From Escherichia coli 042 (GTDB lineage Bacteria > Pseudomonadota > Gammaproteobacteria > Enterobacterales > Enterobacteriaceae), in NCBI RefSeq assembly GCF_000027125.1, contig NC_017626.1: 64,000 nt of DNA, one strand, 5' to 3'. Position numbers and translations under genes: made by a program. The notes under the pieces are model-generated. The model did not search any database and was not told where the DNA came from. It worked only from the letters and a program-made list of their open reading frames with translations. Positions 13,385 through 52,882 of the stretch are shown here, piece after piece. Position 1 is the stretch's first letter. Each line of letters opens with the position of its first letter.

Positions 13385-13470
13385 GCGTTAGATGATGGCA
13401 TTCTCACTCCAGCCAGAGCCACCAACTCAGGGCTGAAGAGTAAAAAAACCGACGCAAAGTCGGTTTTTTT
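13385..13470 (+). ncRNA. agrA: agrA-like small RNA (approximate ends)
   Basis: First full copy of the repeat ctctcactccagccagagccaccaactcagggctg ending in the terminator aaaaaaaccgacgcaaagtcggttttttt; the 5' end is a guess. Confidence 0.45.
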
Positions 13471-13616
13471 ACATCCGGATTCGGACAAGGCTTAATATGA
13501 CGATGACCCAGTGAAAGTATATAAATCGTCACTGCGATATATACCGAAGTGCTCCCTCCGCCAGCTGAAGAAACCGCTAATTCTTGCAATGTTAGCCACT
13601 GGCTAATAGTATTGAA

Positions 13617-13701
13617 CCGTTAGATAAGAGCTCTCTCACTCCAGCCAGAGCCACCAACTCAGGGCTGGAAAGTAAAAAACCGACGCAAAGTCGGTTTTTT
13701 T
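13617..13701 (+). ncRNA. agrB: agrB-like antisense small RNA, antitoxin for dinQ (approximate ends)
   Basis: Second copy of the same repeat and terminator (13674-13701); complementary to the partial repeat at 13190-13250 that lies inside the dinQ transcript. Confidence 0.45.
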
Positions 13702-13853
13702 ACGTCCTGATTCAGACCTCCTTTCAAATGAATACCCAACGCTTAATTCACACCTATTACCTTCCTCTGCACATACACATTCGTTAAACCATATATGTTT
13801 TTGACTTATCCGCTTCGAAGAGAGACACTACCTGCAACAATCAGGAGCGCAAT

Positions 13854-24130: not shown

Positions 24131-26113
24131 TTACCATTGATAACTCACGAAAATTTTTCCATTACGACCATCCTGTGGGATGCCTTGTGGCGACCAGTAC
24201 TCTTTGTCGAAAGCGTTACCCAACACCAAAGTAGTGGTCATACCTTTGAGCGCCTGCTGCCCTTGATAACTGACGTAGAAATCATTCACGCCATAGCCTG
24301 GTTGTTTGCTGTAACTGCTGCTGATATGTGTTGAGCGATCGGCAAACGTACCAACCCACCCAACAGAGAAGCCACTGTGAGCGATCGGAATATTCAGGGT
24401 GCTGGTAACGGTATCCGGGTTAATACTGGAGATATATTCGCCGGTATCGGTGTCTTTGCCGCGGGTACGGTTATAGGCCACATCAAGGCTAAACAGATCA
24501 GTGGTATATTTCGTCATCACATCCCAACCCCAGATTTTGGCGTTCGGGACGTTATACGACATAGTTGTCGCCGCCGCGAAATCGACGGTCGTGGAGATGT
24601 AATCCTTCGCTTTGGTATCAAAGTAGCTGGCTTTAAATTCCAGAGCATCATTGGACAACATCAGATCATCAAAACGCAGCCCAAAACCGTACTCCTGAGT
24701 TTCGTTAGTTTCCGGACGTAAGTTCGGGTTTGGCACCCAATAGTTGGTATAGAAGCGACCAATCGAGAAGTGCTTAGAATCGTTATACATTTCGCCCATC
24801 GTCGGGGCGCGGAATGCCTGGGCATATGAGCCAAATAACATCAGCCAGTTAGCCGGGTTGATAGTCATCCCCGCGCGAGATGACCATTTGTCGGCATCAA
24901 CATCTTTGTAGCCGTCGCTGCTACCGCGATAACTGTCATAGCGGGTTCCGCCAAGCAGGGTAATCGGCAGATCGCGTAAGGTGATCTCATCCTGTAGCCA
25001 GCCGGAGCTAAAATCGATTTTTGCTTGCGGGAAGCCCGTCGTCGCGCCGCCCGGATGTTGTTCCTGACGATAATACTCACCGCCATATGTCAGTAAGTGA
25101 GAAGCGAAACTGTCGGCAAATAGAGTGGAACGGTTCTCCAGTTTGGCTCCTTTTGTTATCTGTTCACGATACTCGCCGGAACTCCCCGTGTTTTGCGCAT
25201 TAATACGGACTTCCGACCAGTAAATTTTTGCATCTGCATTTAACCAGTCGTTGCCCTGCGGGGCGAGTTTATAAGAAAGCTGCGCATCGCGTTGAATTGT
25301 TGAACGATCAACCATCGGGTTGCTGCTATCAGAAGCTTCAACGGTCTGCGGATTTTTTGGTTCACGCGCGTCGTTGTTGTAGTAACGCACTAAACCGCTC
25401 AGAGACTGGGCTGAATCAATTTGCCAGGTCCCTTTCGCCAGCATGTTATTAATGGACTCGTCATTCGGCGCGGTTTCACCATTGCTCTGGCGTAAATCAC
25501 CCCGATCGCGACTGGACCAGGCCACAATACCATCCAGATTTTCAGTTCGCCCAAACGCGCTCGCGCCTAATCCCAGGCTATGGTCCCCCGTGCCGCCAGT
25601 ACCAAAGACACGAAAACCACTACTTTGTCCTTCCTGCAATAAATCTTTTGCATCGACCGTATCGTAGGAGATCACCCCACCCAGCGCGCCACTGCCATAC
25701 AGTAATGCTGAAGGTCCGCGAACAATCTCAACACGCTTGATCAGCGCCGGATCAAGAAAAGTACCATTCAGGTGTCCGGTATCCGTTCCCTGGCGAACAC
25801 CATCGACAAGAACCAGCACGCCGCGATGATCATAGCCACGCATATTTACATCCTGACCGTTGGTTCGTCCGGTACCATCAAGAGTAATTCCAGGAACATG
25901 ACGCAGCAGATCGGTGGCTGAAGTAGCCGTTTGATTTTCAGGAGCGGAAGTGTCGATGACGCTGACCATCATAGGCGCTTCGAAGGAACTACGGGCATTC
26001 CCCGTTGCCGTAACGGTCATGGTTTCAGTAGCAAAAGCAAACGTTGGCAAGGTGGCAGAAACAGCCAAAGCCAACAAACTCAAACGCAACGAGGTAAATT
26101 GCGGACGTGACAT
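24131..26113 (-). CDS. chuA: TonB-dependent outer membrane haem/haemoglobin receptor ChuA (660 aa)
   Basis: Signal peptide, TonB-box region, plug and beta-barrel, C-terminal aromatic residue. Confidence 0.9.
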   Translation of the reverse strand: MSRPQFTSLRLSLLALAVSATLPTFAFATETMTVTATGNARSSFEAPMMVSVIDTSAPENQTATSATDLLRHVPGITLDGTGRTNGQDVNMRGYDHRGVLVLVDGVRQGTDTGHLNGTFLDPALIKRVEIVRGPSALLYGSGALGGVISYDTVDAKDLLQEGQSSGFRVFGTGGTGDHSLGLGASAFGRTENLDGIVAWSSRDRGDLRQSNGETAPNDESINNMLAKGTWQIDSAQSLSGLVRYYNNDAREPKNPQTVEASDSSNPMVDRSTIQRDAQLSYKLAPQGNDWLNADAKIYWSEVRINAQNTGSSGEYREQITKGAKLENRSTLFADSFASHLLTYGGEYYRQEQHPGGATTGFPQAKIDFSSGWLQDEITLRDLPITLLGGTRYDSYRGSSDGYKDVDADKWSSRAGMTINPANWLMLFGSYAQAFRAPTMGEMYNDSKHFSIGRFYTNYWVPNPNLRPETNETQEYGFGLRFDDLMLSNDALEFKASYFDTKAKDYISTTVDFAAATTMSYNVPNAKIWGWDVMTKYTTDLFSLDVAYNRTRGKDTDTGEYISSINPDTVTSTLNIPIAHSGFSVGWVGTFADRSTHISSSYSKQPGYGVNDFYVSYQGQQALKGMTTTLVLGNAFDKEYWSPQGIPQDGRNGKIFVSYQW

Positions 26114-26118
26114 AGCGA

Positions 26119-26134
26119 TTCTCCATGAGGAAAA
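26119..26134 (-). promoter_or_regulatory. FourU-type RNA thermometer hairpin masking the chuA Shine-Dalgarno
   Basis: In chuA orientation 5'-UUUUCC-UCAU-GGAGAA-3' forms a 6-bp stem over the SD, 5 nt before the ATG; such a thermometer has been described for shuA/chuA. Confidence 0.5.
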
Positions 26135-26402
26135 TAAAAAATGCTGGCTGCCTGGGTTAATACCGGGGTGGCTGGCGAAAAATAAATTTATTTAAAATTC
26201 AGAGCGATAATATTCGCCGGGTGAGTTTACAGGCGTTTATATCCCATGAAATTGCCTGGTATCTCGGCAAATACGCAAAAGCACGCCCTCTTTGTCAGGC
26301 AAAACGATATGCCCCATCAGGAGTGAAGAGCGCTGTGCGTTACCCCTTGTAAATGATATGGCTTTGTTATCCATATGGCCGTATTTTGTTAAATGCAAAC
26401 GT

Positions 26403-35694: not shown

Positions 35695-36032
35695 TCAGGA
35701 CATAAGCAACTGAAATTGATGGCTGGCATGACGAGGGATGCAGATGCTGATTTCATTACCCCCGGTGATTACTAAAGGAGAGGCGAAAACGACTTTATTC
35801 CCCTGGTATGTGTATCCACCAGTAGAACCCTTCGTTGCCCGAATGCTGGCAGGAACTGTTGGCAGAACGGCAACATTTTTTTTGTCGTTGACCTCACCAT
35901 GTCGATCACTATGCCTGTATCCCACCTTACTGGCTGACAACCCCACTATGCCGCTGGTCTGTAAATCCCTCATATCTCTCCTCGCGCGCAATTTAAAGAA
36001 CCGTTATTTCTCAAGAATTTTCAGGGACTAAA

Positions 36033-41419: not shown

Positions 41420-41665
41420 GACTATCCCTTATATTTCATTACTGCGATTATTTCAATTTCAGTATACTAATGAAATGATGCCAGACTGTTTCTTAGCGCA
41501 AAAACTGCCAGATTTGGTAGGACCAAAATTTATCCACAAAGTAGTTTTGCATAACAGTTAATTGATAATAAGTAAATGCAACACGAATATATTTTCGCAC
41601 AGCGTATAGCTTATGTTTATAAAAAAATGGCTGATCTTATTTCCAGTAAAAGTTATATTTAACTT

Positions 41666-41771
41666 ACTGAGAGCACAAAGTTTCCCGTGCCAACAGGGAG
41701 TGTTATAACGGTTTATTAGTCTGGAGACGGCAGACTATCCTCTTCCCGGTCCCCTATGCCGGGTTTTTTTT
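41666..41771 (+). ncRNA. gadY: GadY small RNA, antisense to the gadX 3' UTR
   Basis: Plus-strand segment starting actgagagcacaaag and ending in the terminator ccggtcccctatgccggg plus T8, between gadW and gadX. Confidence 0.65.
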
Positions 41772-41787
41772 ATGTCTGAGTAAAACT

Positions 41788-50154: not shown

Positions 50155-51168
50155 ATGACGCAGGAAAACGAGATCAAACGTCCCACCCAGGATCTGGAGC
50201 ACGAGCCGATTAAGCAGTTGGATAATAGCGAGAAAGGCGGCAAAGTTAGCCAGGCGCTGGAAACCGTCACCACCACTGCCGAAAAAGTCCAACGCCAACC
50301 GGTTATTGCGCACCTGATTCGCGCAACAGAACGCTTTAACGATCGGCTGGGTAACCAGTTTGGTGCGGCTATCACCTATTTCTCATTTTTATCGATGATC
50401 CCGATTTTGATGGTGTCGTTTGCCGCAGGGGGCTTTGTGCTGGCCTCCCATCCGATGTTGCTACAGGATATCTTCGACAAAATTCTGCAAAACATCAGCG
50501 ATCCGACGCTAGCCGCCACGTTGAAAAACACCATCAACACCGCCGTTCAGCAGCGTACTACCGTAGGGCTTGTCGGCCTGGCGGTGGCGCTTTATTCCGG
50601 CATCAACTGGATGGGTAACCTGCGTGAAGCGATTCGCGCCCAGTCGCGCGATGTCTGGGAACGCTCGCCGCAAGATCAGGAGAAGTTCTGGGTAAAATAT
50701 CTGCGTGATTTTATTTCGCTGATTGGTTTGTTGATTGCACTGATTGTGACGCTTTCGATCACCTCGGTTGCCGGTTCGGCGCAGCAAATGATTATTAGCG
50801 CCCTGCACCTGAACAGCATTGAGTGGCTGAAACCGACGTGGCGGTTGATTGGCCTGGCGATTTCCATCTTCGCCAACTATCTGCTTTTCTTCTGGATCTT
50901 CTGGCGCTTGCCGCGCCACCGTCCGCGCAAAAAAGCCCTGATTCGCGGAACATTTCTGGCTGCGATTGGTTTTGAAGTGATTAAAATCGTGATGACCTAC
51001 ACCCTGCCATCGCTGATGAAATCCCCCTCTGGCGCAGCATTTGGTTCCGTGCTGGGACTGATGGCGTTTTTCTACTTCTTCGCCCGTTTGACGCTGTTTT
51101 GCGCGGCGTGGATTGCCACCGCCGAATATAAAGATGACCCGCGAATGCCGGGGAAAACGCAGCGGTAA
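50155..51168 (+). CDS. yhjD: YihY/BrkB-family inner membrane protein YhjD (337 aa)
   Basis: Six-TM protein with hydrophilic N-terminus. Confidence 0.8.
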   Translation: MTQENEIKRPTQDLEHEPIKQLDNSEKGGKVSQALETVTTTAEKVQRQPVIAHLIRATERFNDRLGNQFGAAITYFSFLSMIPILMVSFAAGGFVLASHPMLLQDIFDKILQNISDPTLAATLKNTINTAVQQRTTVGLVGLAVALYSGINWMGNLREAIRAQSRDVWERSPQDQEKFWVKYLRDFISLIGLLIALIVTLSITSVAGSAQQMIISALHLNSIEWLKPTWRLIGLAISIFANYLLFFWIFWRLPRHRPRKKALIRGTFLAAIGFEVIKIVMTYTLPSLMKSPSGAAFGSVLGLMAFFYFFARLTLFCAAWIATAEYKDDPRMPGKTQR

Positions 51169-51559
51169 TTCAATGGTTTATAATGCCTGATAAACGCACG
51201 GTCGATCCCCTCGCCCCTTCGGGGAGAGGATTAGGGTGAGGGGGTACAAGCCAGCCAGAGACCAGGCAATGACATGCACATAACCACCTGAAACTACATT
51301 TCTTCAGGAGCAAACAATTTCATACCAACTCATAACCCCAGCATATAAATCCAGTTGGTAACTTTTATTTAACCTGAAACCAGTTTTATCCACTATTTAT
51401 AAAATTATGTGAAGCATTTCATAGAAGAAAAATCACTGGCCTAAACATTATCCCCTTTTTGCCTGGTTTTTGACCATTTCCGCGATTTGTTACACATTGA
51501 AATATCACTTTTGCTGTGCGTAATATGGCTATTCGTTAGCCAAAAAATAAGAAAAGATT

Positions 51560-52882
51560 ATGCAAGCAACAGCCACAACACTCGACCACGAGCAAGAATA
51601 CACGCCGATCAACTCGCGTAATAAAGTCCTTGTCGCCTCTCTCATTGGCACGGCCATTGAGTTTTTCGACTTTTACATTTACGCCACTGCGGCCGTTATT
51701 GTGTTTCCGCATATCTTCTTCCCGCAGGGCGATCCTACGGCAGCAACGCTCCAGTCGCTCGCCACCTTCGCCATCGCCTTCGTCGCGCGCCCCATTGGCT
51801 CTGCCGTTTTTGGTCATTTTGGCGATCGCGTTGGGCGTAAAGCGACGCTGGTCGCCTCGTTGCTAACGATGGGGATTTCGACCGTGGTGATTGGTCTGCT
51901 GCCGGGCTATGCCACGATTGGTATTTTCGCCCCGCTGCTGCTGGCGCTGGCTCGATTTGGTCAGGGTCTGGGCTTAGGCGGTGAATGGGGCGGCGCGGCG
52001 CTGCTGGCGACTGAAAACGCCCCACCGCGCAAACGTGCACTGTATGGCTCCTTCCCGCAGCTGGGCGCACCGATTGGCTTCTTCTTTGCCAACGGCACTT
52101 TCTTGCTGCTTTCCTGGCTACTGACCGACGAGCAGTTTATGAGCTGGGGCTGGCGTGTGCCATTTATCTTCTCAGCGGTGCTGGTCATTATCGGCCTGTA
52201 TGTTCGCGTGTCGCTGCATGAGTCGCCGGTGTTTGAGAAAGTCGCTAAAGCGAAAAAGCAGGTGAAGATCCCGCTGGGTACGCTGCTGACCAAACACGTA
52301 CGCGTCACGGTGCTCGGTACCTTCATCATGCTGGCAACCTATACGCTGTTTTACATCATGACGGTCTACTCTATGACCTTTAGTACCGCCGCCGCGCCAG
52401 TTGGGCTTGGCCTGCCGCGTAACGAAGTGTTGTGGATGCTGATGATGGCAGTTATTGGTTTTGGCGTGATGGTGCCAGTCGCCGGATTACTGGCTGATGC
52501 CTTTGGTCGCCGTAAAAGCATGGTAATCATCACCACGCTGATCATCCTGTTCGCGCTGTTCGCCTTTAACCCGCTGCTCGGTTCTGGCAACCCGATTCTG
52601 GTTTTTGCCTTCCTGCTGCTGGGGTTAAGTCTGATGGGACTGACCTTCGGGCCGATGGGCGCGCTGTTACCAGAGCTGTTCCCGACAGAAGTGCGTTACA
52701 CCGGAGCATCGTTCTCTTACAACGTAGCGTCGATTCTCGGGGCTTCCGTTGCGCCGTATATCGCAGCCTGGTTGCAGACTAACTACGGGTTAGGTGCGGT
52801 GGGGTTATATCTGGCGGCGATGGCTGGCTTGACCTTAATCGCCCTACTGCTGACCCATGAGACGCGACATCAATCGTTGTAA
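51560..52882 (+). CDS. yhjE: MFS transporter YhjE (440 aa)
   Basis: 12-TM MFS with motif GHFGDRVGRK. Confidence 0.85.
   Translation: MQATATTLDHEQEYTPINSRNKVLVASLIGTAIEFFDFYIYATAAVIVFPHIFFPQGDPTAATLQSLATFAIAFVARPIGSAVFGHFGDRVGRKATLVASLLTMGISTVVIGLLPGYATIGIFAPLLLALARFGQGLGLGGEWGGAALLATENAPPRKRALYGSFPQLGAPIGFFFANGTFLLLSWLLTDEQFMSWGWRVPFIFSAVLVIIGLYVRVSLHESPVFEKVAKAKKQVKIPLGTLLTKHVRVTVLGTFIMLATYTLFYIMTVYSMTFSTAAAPVGLGLPRNEVLWMLMMAVIGFGVMVPVAGLLADAFGRRKSMVIITTLIILFALFAFNPLLGSGNPILVFAFLLLGLSLMGLTFGPMGALLPELFPTEVRYTGASFSYNVASILGASVAPYIAAWLQTNYGLGAVGLYLAAMAGLTLIALLLTHETRHQSL

Follow-up and report, generated by a model that had tools for sequence, protein, structure and literature searches.

What is the GC-rich palindrome that lies between yhjD and yhjE, and how did it come to occupy this spacer? 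The locus is part of a 64-kb stretch of E. coli DNA, the whole of which is referred to here as the window. The initial annotation described the palindrome as an element at 51205-51245 that contains nested inverted repeats and resembles a dispersed intergenic repeat rather than a simple terminator. The 41-nt string to which this description refers is present, but its true span is 51204-51244, so the coordinates were offset by one base. Its placement is borne out by the yhjD stop codon at 51166-51168 and the start of yhjE at 51560, and the gene names agree with the open reading frames and with the RefSeq annotation of genomes that are 100% identical to the window. Nested inverted repeats could also be located, in the form of two pairings within 51207-51243. 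A 47-aa open reading frame with a TTG start on the minus strand (51170-51313) overlaps the repeat and was regarded as spurious. The features of the locus are as follows.

50155-51168, plus strand: yhjD coding sequence; the element starts 39 nt past its stop codon, in the same orientation.
51164-51275, plus strand: allele-specific spacer segment, non-homologous to the K-12 BIME allele.
51192-51256, plus strand: whole BoxC repeat unit of ~65 nt, made up of the left flank aaACGCACGGTCGATC, a 36-nt core, and the right flank GTACAAGCCAGCC.
51207-51216 with 51234-51243: outer inverted repeat of the element, CCCCTCGCCC with GGGTGAGGGG.
51208-51217 with 51221-51229: inner inverted repeat of the element, CCCTCGCCCC with GGGGAGAGG.
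51208-51216, plus strand: C-rich block CCCTCGCCC, which has G at the variable position (the ‘mm’ variant) and matches CCCTCNCCC of the TMECO consensus.
51217-51221, plus strand: loop 1, CTTCG, whose C and G can lengthen the stem by one pair.
51222-51230, plus strand: first G-rich block GGGAGAGGA, with a point mutation at 51230 (A in place of the canonical G).
51231-51233, plus strand: loop 2, TTA, which defines ‘type A’.
51234-51242, plus strand: second G-rich block GGGTGAGGG, followed by GG at 51243-51244.
51560-52882, plus strand: yhjE coding sequence; the element ends ~315 nt upstream of its start.

Identity and copy number of the repeat

We consider it close to certain that the element is one slightly mutated copy of BoxC, which has also been published as the PIT element and as TMECO; the initial annotation had recognized a dispersed repeat without giving it this family name. 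The BoxC repeat of E. coli reportedly goes back to Bachellier et al. in the 1990s, and the TMECO, or PIT, element is said to have been treated by Hoyne and Maher in 2000 and 2002. In the published account, BoxC was described in the 1990s, rediscovered as a ‘potential intrastrand triplex’ (PIT) element, and then called TMECO (PMC4666352). It is listed among the known repeat families of E. coli with a length of 56 bp and 32 copies (PMC2267715). The TMECO consensus reads CCCTCNCCC-N3-6-GGGNGAGGG-N3-GGGNGAGGG (Holder et al. 2015, PMC4666352); that paper gives 63 TMECO loci, and strict copy numbers among the strains listed in its supplement range from 1 to 30.

The core and flanks of the window copy align to 15 K-12 type-A BoxC copies, which were taken with 30-nt flanks. 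The aligned type-A unit measures ~65-70 bp, and conservation extends ~20 nt leftward and ~14 nt rightward of the core. The K-12 type-A consensus is GGTC CCCTCGCCCC TYT GGGGAGAGGG TTA GGGTGAGGGG AA (the 43-nt hard core), and the window copy, which reads GATC CCCTCGCCCC TTC GGGGAGAGGA TTA GGGTGAGGGG GT in the same alignment, agrees with it at ~39 of 43 positions. The flank motifs CGCACGG..C and A..GCCAGC are both recognizable in the window copy. A TTA second loop occurs in 15 of the 23 K-12 copies, and the loop between the C block and the first G block begins with C and ends with G in 15 of the 16 K-12 copies that have G at the variable position. All 23 published copies of K-12 MG1655 were found again at their published coordinates, and the window copy, like all 18 K-12 loci, is intergenic. 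The BoxC family is recognized by similarity in core and flanks, multiple dispersed copies, and intergenic location, all of which were found for the window copy.

A genome-wide motif search in E. coli and an Rfam scan had been proposed as checks. The first, performed with a 61-nt query, returned 89,965 places in 5,425 of the 5,426 complete E. coli genomes (median, 18 per genome; at most 33); the genome NZ_CP032515.1, which is identical to the window, contains 16, and at least 469 records hold exactly the 61-mer of the window. The element is thus multi-copy in nearly every E. coli genome, and the BoxC family amounts to roughly 10-30 copies per genome. A search for a second copy within the 64-kb window found none. 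The 38-mer had no matches in 100 shuffles of the window, and for a motif of 23 specified bases simple arithmetic (equal base frequencies assumed) gives a chance expectation of ~6e-7 matches per genome. Uniqueness to this site and lack of structure on folding, which the initial annotation had named as grounds against its reading, do not apply, because the element is multi-copy and folds.

The element matches no Rfam family: at the gathering threshold nothing was found at the element in a scan of the whole window, and at a permissive E-value the best match around the site was Antizyme_FSE (18.6 bits versus a gathering score of 40, E 0.53). Elsewhere in the window, gathering-level matches were obtained for GadY, two AgrB copies, ES205, and the chuA/shuA 5′ UTR thermometer (41663-41776, 13388-13703, 35812-35883, and 26111-26142). 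The presence of the chuA thermometer presumably fits a strain of phylogroup B2, D, E, or F. The element itself is an already known one, and nothing found here alters knowledge of the BoxC family.

The base change at 51230 and the folding of the copy

The window copy departs from the strict TMECO pattern by one specified base, with GGGAGAGGA where GGGNGAGGG is needed, and therefore belongs to Holder's ‘TMECO mutated’ class (PMC4666352). Although the search pattern left the position equivalent to 51230 free, all 155 of the other copies that were examined have G there, 23 of them being K-12 copies and 132 coming from other phyla. At the yhjD–yhjE locus itself, strain EC21 carries the intact G and matches the strict TMECO pattern; SMS-3-5 and PCN033 share the A at 51230 at the same locus. 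Because G is present in every other copy examined and EC21 is intact, the A is a later point mutation of a once-canonical copy. The variable positions of the family are nearly always filled by T or G within the C block and by A and T in the first and second G blocks, respectively; one case of C/G compensation was seen.

Canonical copies read GGG AGA GGG TTA GGG TGA GGG. The G-tracts of the window copy are GGGG, GG, GGG, and GGGGG, the second having been cut to GG by the A at 51230, and the canonical G-quadruplex motif (four runs of three or more G, loops of 1-7) is absent from the window copy. Compared with a canonical TMECO, the window copy has one base triplet fewer in the proposed triplex and no longer fits the (G3N3)3G3 quadruplex pattern. 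With one triplet lost and one tract reduced to GG, the window copy would be a weaker triplex or quadruplex candidate than canonical copies. The predicted energy of the RNA hairpin, by contrast, does not differ between the intact and the mutated copy, because in the predicted minimum-energy fold it is the second G block that pairs with the C block, through a G.T or G.U wobble. The RNA fold of the element has a predicted energy of −26.5 to −29.4 kcal/mol (z −2.8 to −3.3), and the DNA fold one of −9.2 kcal/mol (z −1.5), a weak value once G+C content is kept.

In canonical copies, as single-stranded DNA, the C block pairs with the first G block, onto which the second G block docks (PMC4666352). 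The isolated G-rich single strand of such copies forms a stable intrastrand purine-motif triplex in vitro, as seen by CD and NMR, and canonical elements block DNA polymerase in vitro; in vivo DMS footprinting did not detect a stable triplex (PMC4666352). Canonical elements were reported to act neither as promoters nor as terminators and to leave RNA polymerase unaffected (PMC4666352).

A GC-rich stem-loop shortly past a stop codon is also what would be expected of an intrinsic (Rho-independent) terminator of yhjD. However, our scan of 51000-51650 for terminator-like sites (a hairpin plus a T-run) was blank at the element, and no T-run follows the stem on either strand, the next sequence being GTACAAGCC. 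Moreover, published assays were without terminator activity (PMC4666352), and the element belongs to a multi-copy family with conserved flanks that occurs in both orientations, unlike a gene-specific terminator. We therefore regard a terminator as highly improbable, in agreement with the initial annotation, which had preferred a dispersed repeat over a simple terminator. A search for a promoter signature at the element likewise found none.

Alternative alleles of the yhjD–yhjE spacer

At the same place, K-12 has a pair of REP palindromes (a BIME) and no BoxC, which is why the yhjD–yhjE locus is not among the K-12 BoxC copies. The element itself is not a REP, since the REP palindrome GCCGGATG...CATCCGGC is absent from 51192-51256; the test looked for a palindrome of the form GCC(G/T)GATG...CATC(C/A)GGC, ~35 nt long, which is present in the K-12 allele of the site. 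Divergence between the two alleles begins in the last codon of yhjD (CGG in the window, CCT in K-12) and ends before GCACATAACC. At a query coverage of at least 80%, the BoxC allele (211-nt query) was found in 600 of 5,426 E. coli genomes (~11%), and the BIME allele, K-12 included (233-nt query), in 4,802 of 5,426 (88.5%). Carriers of the same BoxC allele include SMS-3-5 and PCN033, which we take to belong to phylogroups F and D, respectively.

Several smaller differences were seen among the spacers. After 51295, K-12 has 20 extra bases, CGTCCCCAGAGCCTCTTCAG, instead of which the window has a small inverted repeat, CCTGAA/TTCAGG, at 51287-51308. In about a thousand genomes, identity to the K-12 allele is only 80-90%, and the spacer of AR_0086 is a variant of the BIME allele with an 18-nt deletion inside the first REP. 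The yhjD–yhjE allele of GCA_900449995 is that of an ordinary K-12-type E. coli; in GCA_900449995.1, yhjE is split into three called genes (93, 109, and 247 aa), pointing to a pseudogene or to sequencing errors.

Outgroups were reached through YhjD homologues, and comparison was made with Salmonella and Citrobacter, E. albertii and E. fergusonii being hidden by clustering at 90% identity. In both Salmonella enterica and Citrobacter amalonaticus, REP-like palindromes follow right after yhjD, which probably makes the REP state the ancestral one and the BoxC allele a derived one. Further downstream, the 220 nt upstream of yhjE (51340-51559) are 87% identical to Salmonella and 84% identical to Citrobacter, a conservation about equal to that of the end of the yhjD coding sequence; this region, which gave no Rfam match and contains a promoter-like TTGAAA-18-TAATAT at 51497-51526, may be a conserved regulatory leader of yhjE.

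A second locus at which BoxC alternates with another sequence was found between adk and hemH (K-12 497,820-498,000), where a cassette consisting of BoxC and a T-run hairpin follows adk in 54% of E. coli genomes, and an unrelated 54-nt hairpin cassette is present in the remaining genomes, including an O157:H7 strain. Here too, the segment with BoxC is a cassette without homology to its alternative, and its start directly follows the stop codon. Neither at yhjD–yhjE nor at adk–hemH could a target-site duplication or a precise empty site be found. A clean insertion was accordingly rejected, since both loci show only non-homologous replacement cassettes. Judged from their sequences, the cassettes of the two loci point to spacer replacement by recombination rather than transposition, and the BoxC allele at yhjD–yhjE probably arrived by replacement of the whole post-stop segment. 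The cassette pattern at both loci agrees with published observations, according to which strains differ unusually often at TMECO loci (PMC4666352).

The spacer also holds TGCCTGAT at 51184-51191 and ACCAGGCA at 51261-51268, which are complementary at 7 of 8 positions, bracket the BoxC unit, and resemble outer REP arms. The two 8-mers may be left over from a REP that was entered or replaced by BoxC, or they could be due to chance.

Insertion of an active mobile element, either MITE-like or moved in trans in the way that REPs are moved by RAYT transposases, would account for several of these properties. The copy number varies strongly, from 1 to 30 strict copies among the strains listed in the supplement of PMC4666352. 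The core varies little from phylum to phylum and is found on many plasmids, and the unit is flanked by the possible REP remnant just described. Against mobility stand the lack of a target-site duplication and of a clean boundary between filled and empty sites at yhjD–yhjE and adk–hemH, as well as the lack of terminal inverted repeats of the element's own beyond its blocks. Moreover, we know of no transposase associated with BoxC, matches among phages are nearly absent (3 of 50,697 records), and the 8-mer inverted repeat on either side of the unit, being weak, could be due to chance. Thus, insertion of an active mobile element appears quite unlikely, and replacement of the post-stop segment is the course of events that we prefer.

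Spread, possible role, and relation to known systems

The spread of the family beyond Enterobacteriaceae has already been reported, in more than 260 genomes (PMC4666352). A relaxed three-block pattern detected at least 120 loci, and among the matches listed all were from non-enterobacterial MAGs; the lineages among the matches listed were Polaromonas, Archangium, Ca. Contendobacter, and an unclassified MAG, some of them with lineage-specific conserved flanks. BLAST matches on plasmids came from Klebsiella, Sinorhizobium, Azospirillum, Aeromonas, and Rhizobium, and phage matches were limited to 3 of 50,697 records. In the unclassified MAG GL140_5 (JANYBJ01...), the core is embedded in a longer repeat, of which at least 25 bases to either side of the core are conserved, and this repeat forms two subfamilies with the left flanks gataaaaagaacgttgttgccccct and cacaataaaaaacaagttgtttgca. 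The Archangium and Polaromonas MAGs each contain dozens of copies that are nearly identical; those of Archangium have the sequence CCCTCTCCCTCGGGGAGAGGGTCAGGGTGAGGG and then agc, and those of Polaromonas often form inverted pairs with 30-60 nt between them, which resemble the A+B pairs of K-12. A 49-nt BoxC-like match with 89.8% identity was found in the Campylobacter phages A18a and A11a (MG065686 and MG065691; 174-kb records), which is unexpected for this host and may reflect contamination or misassembly.

Taken as a whole, the data are, in our opinion, very likely explained best by a slightly decayed BoxC copy, carried as a passive, structure-forming passenger in a spacer prone to swaps. 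The passive role, in the sense of a passenger rather than a regulator, is a default reading that we infer, unlike the identity of the element. The core is near-identical in distant lineages (Polaromonas, Archangium, Ca. Contendobacter, and plasmids of Sinorhizobium and Azospirillum), for which neutral drift does not account; this hints at a sequence-specific constraint and counts against passivity. Accordingly, it may be asked whether BoxC is something other than junk, with a sequence-specific partner (a mobilizing enzyme or a binding protein) keeping the core across phyla, or with cells selecting a structured cassette at certain gene ends. The basis for this is that the core hardly differs between alpha-, beta-, gamma-, and delta-proteobacterial lineages, and that at yhjD–yhjE it is cleanly swapped with a REP pair just past a stop codon. 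We consider such a partner or such selection unlikely.

A related possibility is that the element is a selected RNA structure in the 3′ UTR of yhjD, one that stabilizes the mRNA or shapes read-through into yhjE and is interchangeable with the BIME. The element lies in sense orientation 39 nt past the stop codon and has a stable predicted RNA hairpin (−26.5 kcal/mol, z −3.25), whose energy is unaltered by the G to A change, and the alternative allele is also stable, with −51.9 kcal/mol for the K-12 BIME RNA. Furthermore, 16 of the 18 K-12 BoxC loci are downstream of a stop codon, the 18 comprising 7 between convergent, 9 between tandem, and 2 between divergent genes. This position past stop codons is also what a 3′-end role predicts, and it therefore weighs against a passive reading; replacement of one structured repeat by another could, in addition, reflect selection for some hairpin at this place. 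Orientation relative to the upstream gene, however, is mixed in K-12. Single copies between tandem genes are inconsistent in K-12, being sense after adk and ycjD and antisense after pstA, yihS, and argF. According to the literature, moreover, the elements neither act as terminators nor affect RNA polymerase (PMC4666352), and a third block is superfluous for a simple hairpin. On balance, a selected 3′-end structure seems rather doubtful, and we retain the passive passenger as the preferred reading. If the passenger is co-transcribed with yhjD, its RNA hairpin of predicted ca. −26 kcal/mol would act as a barrier to 3′ exonucleases, much as the BIME that it replaced.

For annotation, the stretch should be labelled as a BoxC repeat (degenerate), and not as a terminator or an RNA gene. 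The yhjD–yhjE spacer is a small, clean example of intergenic cassette switching, with its boundary in the last codon of yhjD, and natural pairs of BoxC and BIME alleles could be used to probe effects on mRNA 3′ ends or on local genome stability. Should a sequence-specific partner or selection of structured cassettes turn out to be real, the BoxC/BIME dimorphism at this locus would be a ready-made test case.

Among known systems, intrinsic terminators are likewise GC-rich stem-loops downstream of genes, but the element is without a U/T tract, and terminator activity was absent in published tests (PMC4666352). REP palindromes and BIMEs are, like the element, short structured intergenic repeats just past stop codons; their sequences are unrelated to it, and the two-arm design of REP differs from the three-block design of BoxC. 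With TMECO, the window copy shares the layout of C9, a loop of 3-6, G9, a loop of 3, and G9, and it corresponds to ‘type A mm’ (TTA second loop, G at the variable position of the C block). It differs from the K-12 type-A BoxC at four places in the hard core, namely, GATC for GGTC, the last loop base, the G to A change at 51230, and GGT for GAA. Like BoxC generally, the window element is an imperfect, GC-rich palindrome that lies between genes and recurs tens of times per genome.
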